Below, piece after piece: positions 542 through 19,202 of a stretch of 64,000 nt of DNA; position 1 is the first letter of the stretch; the number at the start of each line of letters is the position of its first letter. The DNA lies in contig CAVZFY010000003.1 of assembly GCA_963774695.1 (NCBI GenBank), positions 107,043 to 171,042 on the forward strand. The letters are read 5' to 3'. Under the pieces are notes generated by a model that was not told the DNA's origin, did no database searches, and saw nothing but the letters and a program-made list of their open reading frames with translations. The position numbers were made by a program, and so were the translations under genes. The stretch comes from an uncultured Chloroflexia bacterium. Its GTDB lineage: Bacteria > Chloroflexota > Limnocylindria > Limnocylindrales > CSP1-4.

Positions 542-1553
542 TCAGGCGCGCTGGGCGACGATCGCGCTGGCGCCCGACGGGAGGTCGATCAGCGAGGGCG
601 ACGGGACGCCCGCCGCCGCGAACCAGCCGAGCGCCTCGGACCGCGTCACGAGGCGCGTGCCCTGGATGAGCTCGTCCAGCTGCACGCCCGCGATCAGCTC
701 GGCGTGCCGGGTGCGCAGCTCGTCGGGGTCCGTCGGCAGGTACCAGTCGAGCGCGACGAGCCAGCCGCCCGGCCGGAGCGCCTGCCACGCGGACGCGATC
801 GCGACGGTGGGATACACCAGCTGGTGGAGCGCGTACTGGAAGTAGGCGAGCGTCATCTCGCCGGCGTGGCCGACGGACCCGATATCGCCGTGCTCGATCG
901 TGATCCGGCTCGGCCAGGCCGCTCTCCTCGACGTGCGCGCGGGCCCGGGCGACGGAATCCGCCTCGAACTCGACGCCGATCAGGCGCGTGCCCGGGAACC
1001 GCCTGGCCATCGCGATGAGCCACCGGCCGCCGCCGCAGTGCACGTCGACGATCCCGGCGCCGTCGCCGAGGTCCACGACGAGCTGCGGGAGGGCCGCGAG
1101 GACCTCCTGGAAGAACACCGCGACGTCCTGGACCGTCAGCCGCTCGATCGCCATCCGGTAGCGGTCGGGCCGCGTCGGCAGCACGGACCCCGTCCGCAGG
1201 ACGTCGGGCAGGACGTCGAAGTCGAGGCTGCCGATGGCGGCGTGGAGGAACTGGCCGCCCAGGTACTCGGGCCGGTCCGCGTCGAGCAGGACGGCCGCCA
1301 CCTCGTCGAACAGGACGATCCGGTCGCCGTCGAGCTCGACGAGGTCGTGGACGTCGGCGCCCCACGCCCAGCGCCGGACGAGCTCGGGCTGCGTGCCCGT
1401 GCGCTCCGCGAGCTCCGCCGCCGTGAGACCGCCCTCGCCCGCCCCGTGGAGCGCCTCGAGCAGGCCGAGCTCGAGGCCCACGTAGACGTACCACGTGCGG
1501 TAGAAGCCGCCGAGGCTGACCACCAGCTCGTCGAACGGGTCGTCGAGTCGCAT
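542..1553 (-). CDS. SAM-dependent methyltransferase with N-terminal winged-helix/dimerisation-like region (1 frameshift)
   Basis: Stitched from ORF 192-1664(-) (from the Met at 1553, MRLDDPF...) and ORF 542-856(-). Motif I-like VDVHCGGG. Frame break near 900-915. Length is 3n+1. Confidence 0.7.
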
Positions 1554-1629
1554 GGCCGGATTGTGACATGCTGCTTGCGGGCCTCCGGGGACGATTCGGG
1601 GACGGGATGCAACCGTCCCGGCGTCGCGC

Positions 1630-2220
1630 GTGTTCTGGGTGGTGATGGACGACGACGAGCTCACCGAATCGCTCGCGCGCGACCTCGACGCCTCGTTCGA
1701 GGCGCTCGTGCGGGCGCACGCGGACCGCTGCTACTCGATCGCGCTGCGCGTGCTCGGGAACCCCCACGACGCCGAGGAGGTGGCCCAGGACGCCCTGGTC
1801 CGCGCCTACCGAGCCATCGACGGCTACCACCCCGACCGGGTCCGCGCCCTCCGGCTGCGGCCGTGGCTGGCGACGATCGTCGTCAACCTGTGCCGCAACC
1901 GCACCCGCCGGCACGCGCCGGCCTCCGTGGCGCTGGACCCGCTCGTCGAGGTCGGGCTCGAACCCGCCGCCGCGACCGCGGACGAGCCCCCGAACGTCGC
2001 GGCCCGTGCCGCCGATCGCGAGCGCCTCGCGGCGCTGCTGGCGACGCTCCCCGACCGCTACCGCGTGCCGGTGGTGCTGCGCCACGTCGACGACCTGTCC
2101 TATGCCGAGCTGGCCGAGATCCTCGGCCGGCCCGAGGGCACGCTCAAGTCCCAGGTCTCCCGGGGCCTCGCGATGCTCCGTGCCGCCGCCGGAACCGAGC
2201 TCGAGGAGCTGACCGCATGA
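1630..2220 (+). CDS. ECF (group 4) RNA polymerase sigma factor
   Basis: ORF 1630-2220, intact. Region 2 (DAEEVAQDALVRAYRAI, RPWLATIVVNLCRNRTRR) and region 4 HTH (LSYAELAEILGRPEGTLKSQVSRGLAMLR). The true start may be the ATG at 1645. Confidence 0.85.
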   Translation: MFWVVMDDDELTESLARDLDASFEALVRAHADRCYSIALRVLGNPHDAEEVAQDALVRAYRAIDGYHPDRVRALRLRPWLATIVVNLCRNRTRRHAPASVALDPLVEVGLEPAAATADEPPNVAARAADRERLAALLATLPDRYRVPVVLRHVDDLSYAELAEILGRPEGTLKSQVSRGLAMLRAAAGTELEELTA

Positions 2221-3030
2221 ACCGCACCTACCTCCGATCCCTCGCCGACGACGCGCCCGGCGGCCTCGCGACGCTCAGGGTCCGGGCGCCCGCGTCCGTG
2301 GGCGAGGGCGCCCTCGTCGAGGTCGGCCTGGCCGACCGGATGGCGCCGATGGACTCGCCGCTCGGCACGCTGTGGGTCGCGTGGAACGGGCGCGGCGTGT
2401 CCGAGGTGGAGCTCGCGCGCCGACGGGGTCGAGGCCGCCGCCCGCCACGAGGCGCGCACCGGCCGGCCGACGTCGGTCGCCGACGCCCTGCCCGCGTCCC
2501 TGGCCGATGCCATCGCACGTCGCCTCGCCGGGGAGCGGCGGGTCCGGATCCCGCTCGACCTGCGTGGCCGCACCGAGTTCGAGGTCGCCGTCTGGACGAA
2601 GGCGCTCGAGATCCCGCGCGGCGAGGTCCGCCCGTACGGGTGGATCGCGGCCGAGATCGGCCGGCCGAAGGCGGTCCGGGCGGTCGGGACGGCGCTCGGC
2701 CACAACCCGGTGCCGCTGATCGTGCCCTGCCACCGCGTGGTGCGGACGGACGGGACGATCGGCCAGTACAGCCTCGGCGGTCCCGGCAACAAGCGGACGG
2801 TCCTGGCGGCCGAGGGACTCGATCCCGAGGCCATGGAGGCCGCGGCCCGGGGCGGCGAGCGGCTGTCCGGCTCGACGACGACGCACATCGTGTGCTGGCC
2901 CACGTGCCGCCACGCGCGCCGCGTCCAGGACCGCTACCGCGTGTCGTTCCGGTCGCTCCGCGAGGCGCGGTCGCGCGGCTACCGGCCGTGCAAGATCTGC
3001 CGCCCGGTGGCGGTCGACGCGGCGGCCTGA
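2217..3030 (+). CDS. methylated-DNA-protein-cysteine methyltransferase (Ogt/MGMT) fused to a C-terminal Ada-type zinc-finger-like domain (1 frameshift)
   Basis: The ATG at 2217 overlaps the sigma stop (ATGA). N-terminal part lies in the frame of ORF 900-4655 (MNRTYL...SPLGTLWVAWNGRGV). After a break near 2410-2425 it continues in the frame of ORF 2710-3030. Active site PCHRVV. C-terminal part has four Cys (CWPTC...YRPCKICRP). Confidence 0.8.
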
Positions 3031-3134
3031 CGCGCCTCCGAGCGCCGGCCCCGGCGACTTGGCCTAGCGGACTAGCGCAAGGCCGTCGGAGTCGCTACAC
3101 TCCGGCCAACCTCGCAGCCGGAGCCCACATCGCG

Positions 3135-4111
3135 ATGCGACCGTCCGCCAGCCCGATCGCCGTCTGGATCGGGCTCGTCGTCCTCTACTTCGTCTGGGGC
3201 TCGACGTACATCGGCATCAAGGTCGCCGTGGAGACGATCCCGGCGTTCGTGATGGGCTTCCTCCGCTTCGTCCCGGCCGGGATCCTGCTCGCGGGCACCG
3301 TCGCGCTCGTCAACCGCCGCACCATCCGGCGGCCGAACCGCCGCGAGGTCGTCGACGCCTCCATCGTCGGCACGTGCCTGCTGCTCGGCGGGATGGGCCT
3401 CGTCGCGTGGGGCGAGCAGACGATCCCCTCGGGCATCGCCGCGCTGCTGGTCGCGCTGATGCCGATGTGGCTCGCGATCTTCGGCCTGGCGTTCTTCGGC
3501 GAGCGGCTCCCGCGCGCCGGCGTCGTCGGCATCGCCGTCGGCCTGCTCGGCGTCGCGATCCTCGCCTGGCCAACCGCCGGCGTCGACGACCTCGACCCTG
3601 CCGGCCTCCTCGCCCTGCTCGTCTCGCCCGTCCTGTGGGCGCTCGGCTCGATCTACGCGGCGCGCCGGGCCGTGCTGCCCGCGCCCGCGCTGTTCGCGAC
3701 CGGCGCCGAGATGGTGGCGGGCGGGATCGCCCTGCTGATCGCCAGCGCGCTGACCGGCGAGCTCGGCTCGTTCGACGTCGCCGCGGTCTCGCCGCAGAGC
3801 TGGGCCGGCCTGCTGTACCTGCTCGTGGTCGGCAGCCTCGTCGGGTACACGACGTTCGCCTGGCTGCTGACGGTCGCGCCGCTGCCGCGGGTCGCCACGT
3901 ACGCCTACGTGAACCCGGTGGTCGCCGTCATCCTCGGGGCGATCATCCTGCAGGAGCCGCTGACGCCGCGCACGATCGTCGCGAGCGTCGTGATCATCGC
4001 GGCCGTCGTGCTGATCGTCACCGCGAGGGGCCGGGTCGCGCCGCGGGTCGCCGCGGTGACGCCGGAGCCCGCGGCCGAGCGCGAGCAGGCTCGGAGCCGG
4101 CCGCGGCCTGA
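3135..4111 (+). CDS. EamA/DMT-family transporter
   Basis: Frame of ORF 900-4655 from the ATG at 3135. About 10 hydrophobic helices and two EamA-like halves (YFVWGSTYIGIKVA..., LLYLLVVGSLVGYTTFAWLL). The 3' end is unresolved: the in-frame ORF runs on to 4655 over the next gene, and there is a TGA at 4109-4111 in the adjacent frame. Confidence 0.78.
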
Positions 4112-6208: not shown

Positions 6209-7417
6209 CCCGCGCTCGGGCGCTCGAACCCCTGCGCCGGCCACGGCTCGCAGCGCAGCGGCCGGTCCTCGCGGTAGCCCAGGGCGTAGTCGGCCTGGAT
6301 GAGCGTGTGCAGCTGGCTCGTGCCCTCGTAGATCACGGCGGCCTTGCTGTTGCGCAGGTAGCGCTCGACCGGGAACTCGTTGCTGTACCCGTTGGCGCCG
6401 TGGATCTGGATCGCGTCGAGCGCGGCCTGGACCGAGTGGTCGGTCGCGTGCCACTTGGCGAGCGAGGTCTCGCGCGTGTTGCGCACGCCCCGGTTCTTGA
6501 GCGCGCCCGCCTGGAACACGAGCAGCCGCCCGATCTCGGTGCCCTTGGCCATGTTGGCGATCATCTGCTTGACGAGCTGGTGGTGGCCGATCTCCTCGCC
6601 GAACGTCTCGCGCTCGTGGGCGTACCGGATCGACGCGTCGAGGCAGGCCTGCGCGAGGCCCACGGCGCCGGCGGCCACCGTGAACCGGCCCTGGTCGATG
6701 GCGCTCATCGCGATCAGGAAGCCCTCGCCCTCCTCGCCGATCCGGTGCTCGACCGGGACGCGGACGTCCTCCATGTCGATGAGCCCGGTGTTGCCGGCGC
6801 GGATCCCGAGCTTGCCGTGCAGCGTGCCGGTGGTCAGGCCGGGCATCCCGCGCTCGAGGACGAACGCCGTGATGCCCGCGGTGCTTCTTCTCGCGGTCGA
6901 CGCTCGCGAAGACCAGGAAGTGGTCGGCGAGGTCGGCGAGGCTGATCCAGATCTTGTGGCCGTTGAGGACGTACGAATCGCCGTCGCGGCGCGCGGTCGA
7001 GGCGAGGTTGCCGGCGTCGGTCCCGACGCCCGGCTCGGTCAGCGCGAACGTCGCCAGCTTCTCGCCCTTCGCCTGCGGGACGAGCCAGCGCTGTCGCTGC
7101 TCCTCGGTCCCCCACTGGAGCAGCGTGAGGCTGTTGAGCCCGACGTGGACGCTCTGGACGACGCGGTACGCGGTGTCGGCGCGCTCGAGCTCCTCGCACA
7201 GCAGCGCGAAGCTGATGTAGTCCATGCCCGCGCCGCCGTAGCGCTCCGGGATCGGCGCGCCCAGGAACCCGAGCTCGCCCATCTTCGCGAAGACCTCGGG
7301 GTGCGCCTCGCCCTGCTCGTCCCACTCGCGGATGTGCGGCAGGATCTCGGCCTCGACGAACGCGCGGGCGCTCTCGCGCACGAGGCGCTGCTCGTCGGTC
7401 AGGGTGAAGTCGATCAC
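6205..7417 (-). CDS. acyl-CoA dehydrogenase (1 frameshift)
   Basis: N-terminal part in ORF 5513-8728(-) from the GTG at 7417 ([18 protein letters not shown]...). C-terminal part is ORF 6205-6846(-) (...[19 protein letters not shown]). The break is an extra C in the CCC run at 6875-6877. Confidence 0.87.
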
Positions 7418-11777: not shown

Positions 11778-11853
11778 TGGCGCCCCCGGCAGGAATTGAA
11801 CCTGCGACCTCGGGTTTAGAAGACCCTCGCTCTATCCGCTGAGCTACGGGGGC
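11778..11853 (-). tRNA. tRNA-Arg (anticodon TCT)
   Basis: 76 nt cloverleaf read by hand. Acceptor GCCCCCG/CGGGGGC, D arm GCTC-AGCGGAT-AGAGC, anticodon arm AGGGT-CTTCTAA-ACCCG, T arm GCAGG-TTCAATT-CCTGC. CCA is encoded. Confidence 0.93.
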
Positions 11854-19125: not shown

Positions 19126-19202
19126 TGGTACCGCATACCGGATTCGAACCGGTGATCTCCGCCTTGAGAGGGCGGTGTCCTGGGCCTCTAGACGAATGCG
19201 GC
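19126..19202 (-). tRNA. tRNA-Glu (anticodon CTC)
   Basis: 77 nt cloverleaf read by hand. Acceptor GCCGCAT/ATGCGGT (G1-U72 wobble), GTCTAGAGGCCCAGGAC D region typical of tRNA-Glu, anticodon arm CCGCC-CTCTCAA-GGCGG, T arm ACCGG-TTCGAAT-CCGGT. CCA is encoded. Confidence 0.93.

Follow-up and report, generated by a model that had tools for sequence, protein, structure and literature searches.

A two-gene locus was analyzed in a 64,000-nucleotide stretch of DNA from an uncultured Chloroflexia bacterium (GenBank assembly GCA_963774695.1, contig CAVZFY010000003.1, positions 107,043 to 171,042 of the forward strand; hereafter the window, numbered from its first letter). The first gene encodes an extracytoplasmic function (ECF) sigma factor, and the second, directly downstream, encodes a partner protein in which a DNA-repair alkyltransferase of the MGMT/Ogt type precedes a C-terminal zinc module resembling that of E. 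coli Ada (the MGMT-AdaZn family). Both genes and the promoter in front of them lie on the forward strand, between about 1608 and 3030, and they may together form an alkylation-responsive module of the sigma/anti-sigma type.

The sigma factor gene (1645..2220, +) encodes 191 amino acids and ends with TGA at 2218-2220. Its product was matched by Sigma70_r2 (4.4e-17) and Sigma70_r4_2 (5.9e-16) in Pfam and scored 90.7 bits against the ECF superfamily model TIGR02937 (cut-off 42.9); with regions 2 and 4 only, a short length and the superfamily match, it belongs to the ECF (group 4) sigma-70 factors, as a first-pass annotation of the window, made from the letters alone, had proposed. The open reading frame listed for the gene begins at an alternative start, GTG 1630, but the true start is most likely ATG 1645, because this ATG is kept in nearly all of 84 related loci. 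The window sigma factor shares 44% identity with those of Streptomyces and Nonomuraea that have the same MGMT-AdaZn partner; across the sigma factors paired with this partner the identity to the window protein is 39-44% and an insertion in region 2 is common to them, and on these comparisons they are one family. A search with the window sigma factor returned close Limnocylindrales relatives alone and gave no help for the assignment to an ECF group.

Just upstream, the first-pass annotation had pointed to a possible ECF-type promoter, TGCAAC-N15-CGTGTT (1608..1634, +; -35 element TGCAAC at 1608-1613 and -10 element CGTGTT at 1629-1634), and phylogenetic footprinting bore this out. Of the 84 upstream regions that were aligned, 83 have GCAAC and GTT unchanged, in the same position and at a fixed offset of 23 nt, with variable spacer and flanks, and besides the -35 and -10 elements no conserved box was found in these regions. 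The pattern GCAAC-N18-GTT has a single match in the 64-kb window (0.27 expected by chance) and occurs once per locus, in the same place, in 81 of 83 loci; there is no second copy, and hence no further regulon member recognizable by motif, within the window. The same motif with the same geometry precedes the sigma gene in Streptomyces, Rubrobacter and Nonomuraea, and a similar AAC-N18-GTT, farther upstream of the sigma gene, is present in two loci of the long-form relatives described below. In the window, 10 nt separate the end of the GTT from the sigma ATG, from which a leaderless or almost leaderless mRNA is predicted. Such a pattern is what would be expected of an autoregulated ECF promoter. 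Neither sigma-70-type promoters nor intrinsic terminators were found in 1400-3300.

The partner gene starts within the end of the sigma gene: its ATG overlaps the sigma stop codon as ATGA (2217-2220), and this 4-nt overlap, already seen in the first pass, is kept in 82 of the 84 loci (window counted). In the window the coding sequence of the partner is split over two frames, and a single intact open reading frame can be ruled out. The 5' part (2217..2417, +), in the frame of ATG 2217, encodes the leader and the start of the MGMT N-terminal domain (residues 1 to ~67, MNRTY...SPLGTLWVAWNGRGVSEVELAR), after which this frame turns into nonsense. The 3' part (2420..3030, +), in the +1 frame, encodes the rest of the MGMT N-terminal domain, the catalytic domain and the Ada zinc module (DGVEAAARH...PCHRVV...CWPTC...CKICRP) up to the stop codon at 3028-3030. 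Between them lies one extra base in the run GCGCGCC (2417..2419, +); the exact base is ambiguous, as DNA alignment with six relatives, none of which has it, placed it at ~2417-2419, and BLASTN against the three closest contigs (L001, L082 and L083), from all of which it is absent, placed it at 2419. The fusion of MGMT and Ada zinc domains described in the first pass thus stands as far as domains and motifs are concerned, but the frameshift at ~2418 had been overlooked.

The frameshift is probably an assembly error rather than biology, because more than 80 relatives have the gene intact and neighboring genes of the window show similar indels. Intact partner homologues of 270 aa reach 91% identity, both halves of the window protein are 87-93% identical to intact homologues, and no other disabling change was found. 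The two closest contigs, L082 and L083 (93% nucleotide identity), have their own, different indels in the partner gene; the call for L082 reads through into the next gene (661 aa), and that for L083, of 277 aa, is without the zinc module. In comparison with relatives, single-base indels in the window disrupt at least three further genes within 7.5 kb: a divergent S-adenosylmethionine (SAM)-dependent methyltransferase (~909-910), a GMC oxidoreductase (4331, 4461, 4578, 4622, 4799, 4996 and 5015) and an acyl-CoA dehydrogenase (~6875-6981). The relatives themselves come largely from long-read assemblies of metagenome-assembled genomes. That the partner gene is a genuine pseudogene, with a real extra base and a module broken in this genome, would agree with the two frames of the sequence as given and with the lack of the base in all aligned relatives; set against the indels in the surrounding genes, the different indels of the two closest contigs, the long-read origin of most relatives and the otherwise undamaged halves, we consider it improbable. 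A programmed +1 frameshift at ~2418 was ruled out, the extra base being unique to the window and the close contigs having other random indels. The window looks like an indel-prone (long-read) assembly, in which readings based on open reading frames need care.

Two side observations touch on this point. A GC3 frame plot suggested frequent frame switches across the whole 64 kb. In the database, three proteins of 435-554 aa (P0128, P0222 and P0265) are read-through chimeras of the sigma factor, out-of-frame stretches and the MGMT partner, and the 661-aa call of L082 joins MGMT to an EamA transporter, so that entries with assembly frameshifts can mimic domain fusions.

Domain searches were conducted on the partner protein with the extra base at ~2418 removed. 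The repaired protein is a member of the MGMT/Ogt proteins: its DNA-binding/catalytic domain (DNA_binding_1, PF01035; 2575..2817, +) was matched at 1.2e-29 in Pfam, and it scored 93.1 bits vs. 46.4 for TIGR00589. The acceptor Cys of the PCHRVV motif is encoded at 2728-2730 (+). The MGMT N-terminal-like region reported in the first pass is present as a motif, and the corresponding Methyltransf_1N match is weak (0.14); SPLGTLWVAWNGRGV, PCHRVV and CWPTC...CKICRP were all found in the window. The C-terminal four-Cys module that had been likened to Ada does pass the Ada_Zn_binding profile (PF02805; 2866..3006, +; Pfam 2e-8, above the gathering cut-off), with 34.5 bits against a cut-off of 23 and a partial cover of profile positions 19-64 of 65. 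Its cysteines are arranged as C-x3-C...C-x2-C (codons 2893-2895, 2905-2907, 2989-2991 and 2998-3000, +). The C-terminal 70 residues align by phmmer with E. coli N-Ada (1ADN, 1WPK, 1U8B and 1ZGW), and in this alignment the four cysteines fall on C38, C42, C69 and C72 of E. coli Ada, of which C38 is the methyl-phosphotriester acceptor. The protein as a whole stays well below the cut-off of the Ada equivalog model NF011964 (104.7 vs. 345 bits), and its domain order is reversed. Neither an AraC-type helix-turn-helix (HTH_AraC) nor another sequence-specific DNA-binding domain was detected in the partner with Pfam and NCBIfam. In agreement with the first pass, Pfam also detected no zf-HC2 domain and the HxxxCxxC motif is missing from the window partner, so that it does not match the class I anti-sigma factors of the zinc-binding anti-sigma (ZAS) kind.

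The closest intact homologue was modeled with AlphaFold2 at a mean predicted local distance difference test (pLDDT) score of 90.9 and a predicted template modeling (pTM) score of 0.84; residues 1-20 are of low confidence, and a confident helix (26-36) lies ahead of the MGMT N-terminal domain. A conserved AP motif and the helix at ~26-36 both belong to the leader (residues 1 to ~40). In Foldseek searches, the body of the partner matched E. coli Ada-C, human AGT and M. tuberculosis OGT (1SFE, 1YFH and 4WX9), and the tail matched methylated N-Ada (1U8B) with a root-mean-square deviation of 1.9 A over 51 columns. In alignments of 25 and of 90 family members, the PCHR motif, N163, Y140, R154 (the Arg finger) and E199 are invariant, and the same holds for the four zinc cysteines. 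Because these catalytic and zinc residues are invariant, both suicide acceptor sites appear to be under selection.

Whether the sigma-MGMT adjacency recurs in related genomes was a check suggested in the first pass, and it turned out to be conserved throughout. A scan of one genome per species yielded 80 loci, all from Limnocylindrales (Chloroflexota), and together with L001 the sigma gene is immediately upstream on the same strand in 81 of 81. Metagenomes were scanned with divergent short forms, 45-50% identical to the window protein, as seeds, and an ECF sigma gene lies directly upstream in all 28 testable loci with the architecture of leader, MGMT and C-terminal zinc module; among ordinary Ogt genes of the same metagenome sample only one in ten is sigma-adjacent. 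Two apparent exceptions, L152 and L166, encode classical Ada proteins with an N-terminal zinc domain, which are outside the MGMT-AdaZn family. The pair was also found in three cultured Actinomycetota, namely Rubrobacter radiotolerans (plasmid 2; WP_051590067.1 and WP_084264190.1), Streptomyces sp. NBC_00503 (on a plasmid; WP_330301510.1 and WP_330301391.1) and Nonomuraea gerenzanensis, and on Acidobacteriota-type, Longimicrobiales and other contigs, where the flanking genes are unrelated. With these occurrences, in four bacterial phyla, the adjacency has been kept well past what common ancestry of one clade would explain.

Some loci depart from the common arrangement in detail. On the Streptomyces plasmid (NZ_CP107856.1; locus L171, 1842-3844), the sigma gene is followed by a protein annotated as ‘Ada metal-binding domain-containing protein’ and then by a second, ordinary MGMT gene; the first of these retains PCHR and the four cysteines and, as compared by eye, has seemingly lost the MGMT Tyr and Arg-finger positions, which suggests that a sensor copy and an enzyme copy have split apart. 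The metagenome loci L136-L143 represent a sub-family whose sequence ahead of the MGMT catalytic domain has diverged too far to be matched by the family hidden Markov model (HMM); these proteins start with a leader-like helix (P...P..L...V), and the HMM match is preceded, at a distance of ~215-235 nt, by an ECF sigma gene.

Among representative sequences, ~200 clusters were recovered at E <=1e-30; a subset of them, ~298 aa long, is extended at the N-terminus and has a C...HxxxCxxC motif there. In three of them (P0147, P0165 and P0176), hmmscan placed zf-HC2 above the cut-off, fused before the MGMT-AdaZn body. It is by the zf-HC2 domain that class I anti-sigma factors are recognized. Relatives of ~298 aa number at least 1475 (Acidobacteriota, Longimicrobiales/Gemmatimonadota and Chloroflexota), many of them with a precomputed PF13490 match, and in three unrelated genomic contexts the long form is located directly downstream of, or overlaps, an ECF sigma gene. 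The AlphaFold2 model of one long form, P0441 (pLDDT 91.4, pTM 0.75), begins with an N-terminal bundle of three helices; a linker of lower confidence and a helix (59-69) lead from it to the same MGMT and zinc body. The leader of the window protein corresponds in the alignment to the linker and helix located after the bundle (consensus LxxLxxxAPxxLxxxVLxxxGxxDxY), and the AP motif is nearly invariant in short and long forms. Because of this alignment, the window partner is best described as a short form in which the zinc-binding part of the anti-sigma domain is missing and the helix after it is retained. The zf-HC2 fusion provides the best available evidence that the MGMT-AdaZn family may fill an anti-sigma role.

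The pairing of an ECF sigma factor with MGMT is already catalogued but uncharacterised. According to a 2022 review (PMC8999054), ECF122 of the Casas-Pastor et al. (2021) classification has 6-O-methylguanine DNA methyltransferases as its conserved neighbor and is filed under ‘unknown mechanism’, among sigma factors without an anti-sigma factor, with WP_057211282.1 of Cellulomonas sp. Root930 as an example. A full-text literature search found no experimental study of the pairing, and ECF122 was mentioned in PMC8999054 alone; the main text and the preprint of Casas-Pastor et al. (2021) make no mention of ECF122 or MGMT. The window locus resembles ECF122 in having an ECF sigma factor with a conserved 6-O-methylguanine DNA methyltransferase neighbor, a comparison made by neighbor gene; an indirect sign that it may belong there is the 44% identity of its sigma factor to actinomycete ones with the same partner and promoter motif. 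It differs in coming from Chloroflexota (Limnocylindrales) and not from Actinomycetota, and in the Ada zinc module and the zf-HC2 relatives, neither of which is named in the summary given by the review.

Compared with E. coli Ada (N-Ada zinc domain, AraC-type helix-turn-helix and C-terminal MGMT), the window partner likewise has both suicide acceptor modules, with PCHR in its MGMT domain and the zinc cysteines in the corresponding places, but MGMT comes first and the zinc module last, the helix-turn-helix is missing, and the output would run via a separate ECF sigma factor instead of direct promoter binding. With the class I ZAS anti-sigma factors (zf-HC2; RsrA, RshA, ChrR and RslA) it has in common a gene directly downstream of, and coupled to, an ECF sigma gene with the marks of autoregulation, and, in the long-form relatives, the C...HxxxCxxC domain; the window protein is without the zinc-binding three-helix part, although the following helix is kept, and its sensor body would be a DNA-repair alkyltransferase in place of a membrane, periplasmic or redox-only module. 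The proteins of stand-alone Ogt and split Ada systems (B. subtilis AdaA/AdaB; M. tuberculosis AdaA-AlkA/Ogt) share the MGMT fold and active site (M. tuberculosis OGT is among the top structural matches), but in them the N-terminal leader, the C-terminal zinc module and the sigma partner are all missing.

We propose a module of two genes, in which an autoregulated, near-leaderless promoter would drive the sigma gene and a translationally coupled partner that stands in the place of an anti-sigma factor and would act as a bifunctional suicide alkyl acceptor, with an Ogt-type domain and a C-terminal Ada-type Zn(Cys)4. The unalkylated partner would keep the sigma factor inactive. Irreversible transfer of an alkyl group from damaged DNA to the MGMT Cys, the Ada-module Cys or both would then leave the partner changed, relocated or destabilised; the sigma factor would be freed and would transcribe its own operon from GCAAC-N18-GTT, and the consumed repair protein would be replaced, which would close the loop. 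To this reading, an alkylation-responsive sigma/anti-sigma-type module, we give about an even chance. It builds on the identified domains, on catalytic and zinc residues that are intact, on the conservation of coupling and promoter and on the existence of zf-HC2 relatives, all of which are observed; that the short form binds the sigma factor and that alkylation releases it is what we infer. The proposal of the first-pass annotation, an alkylation sensor in the anti-sigma position, has accordingly gained the conserved pairing and the zf-HC2-fused relatives, while sigma binding by the short form and the methyl switch keep the standing of inference. A bolder version would make the partner a consumable anti-sigma factor, in which one alkyl transfer inactivates one molecule and releases one sigma factor, so that lesions would be counted stoichiometrically and the spent protein re-made exactly, and in which the short form would hold the sigma factor via one leader helix that packs against the N-terminal domain of MGMT; such a minimal sigma-binding element, not described before, would replace the canonical anti-sigma domain. 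This version is tentative, and we rate its chances as somewhat short of even.

Several points weigh against a sigma/anti-sigma module. The window form lacks helices 1-3 and the HxxxCxxC of the anti-sigma domain, the first 20 residues of the partner are variable and modeled with low confidence, and we know of no case in which a lone helix like the remaining one is a sufficient sigma-binding unit. If the extra base at ~2418 were real, the window copy would be a pseudogene. Co-transcription would be equally expected if the repair protein were simply the main target of the sigma factor, and the MGMT-associated ECF122 is classed, in the review cited above, as ‘without anti-sigma factor’ and of unknown mechanism (PMC8999054). 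The last two points lead to a different reading, in which MGMT-AdaZn is cargo, i.e., the main product of the operon and a repair enzyme, the sigma factor is controlled otherwise (by transcription, proteolysis or an unlinked factor), and an ancestral anti-sigma function has been lost in the short forms. Besides that listing, the lack of a recognizable anti-sigma domain in the short form and the full conservation of the catalytic residues of both repair modules, as in a working enzyme, speak for it. It accounts less readily for the overlap of start and stop codons kept in nearly all loci, for the presence of the pair at every testable short-form locus of divergent lineages, for the leader helix and AP motif common to short and long forms, and for ordinary Ogt genes not being sigma-linked; we consider it a possible reading, though on the unlikely side.

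The partner might also sense something other than alkylated DNA. Some ZAS anti-sigma factors, e.g., RsrA, free their sigma factor when zinc-ligand cysteines are oxidised or alkylated, and the long forms have a complete C...HxxxCxxC ZAS motif, so that the Zn(Cys)4 (with the ZAS site in long forms) could be a thiol/redox or general electrophile sensor for oxidants and soft electrophiles, with MGMT as a passenger. The short form, however, keeps the pairing although the ZAS site is absent, the C-terminal module aligns specifically with N-Ada, acceptor Cys38 included, and it would be difficult to account for the invariance of the acceptor Cys, Arg finger, Tyr, Asn and Glu of MGMT if the transfer of alkyl groups from DNA played no part, which makes such a sensor distinctly unlikely. 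Methylation of Cys38 raises the DNA affinity of Ada, and methylated Ada contacts RNA polymerase; as the zinc module aligns with N-Ada, the methylated partner could in a similar way bind DNA and recruit or position the ECF holoenzyme, with no sequestration of the sigma factor. However, the partner has neither an AraC-type helix-turn-helix nor another sequence-specific DNA-binding domain, the conserved DNA upstream consists of the -35 and -10 elements alone, with no extra box, and the long forms bear a domain that is inhibitory (anti-sigma); this reading seems highly improbable.

In Limnocylindrales the pair is embedded in a conserved four-gene neighborhood. The SAM-dependent methyltransferase gene (545-1556, -), divergent and upstream of the pair, is present in 75 of the 81 loci, and in 71 of the 81 an EamA/DMT-type transporter gene (3135-4070, +) follows the pair on the same strand, at a distance of ~100 nt. 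As the flanks differ outside that order, the neighborhood may be plain synteny and not function. Upstream of the methyltransferase, a small cupredoxin-like open reading frame (~99-503, +) corresponds to the Cupredoxin_1 gene of L082 and L083 and is apparently also indel-affected in the window. The sole Rfam and ARAGORN matches in the window are tRNA-Arg(TCT) (11778-11853, -) and tRNA-Glu(CTC) (19126-19202, -).

In the adaptive response to alkylation, self-methylation turns a repair protein into a transcription factor; to our knowledge, this response is known only in the Ada (AraC-type) form. If the proposed alkylation-responsive sigma/anti-sigma-type module is true, it would be a second, independent wiring of Ada chemistry, into sigma-factor control, and the partner would be the first anti-sigma factor signalled by a covalent, irreversible DNA-repair event. 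The pairing will be no surprise to ECF specialists, but it offers a well-defined, testable route to an unstudied signalling mechanism: since the family is present in culturable Streptomyces, Nonomuraea and Rubrobacter, the question of the ECF122 mechanism is directly testable. Synthetic biology could also make use of the module, as an orthogonal switch that responds to alkylation. The family is a large one and counts thousands of sequences from soil Chloroflexota, Acidobacteriota, Gemmatimonadota and Actinomycetota, and its promoter is simple and well defined.

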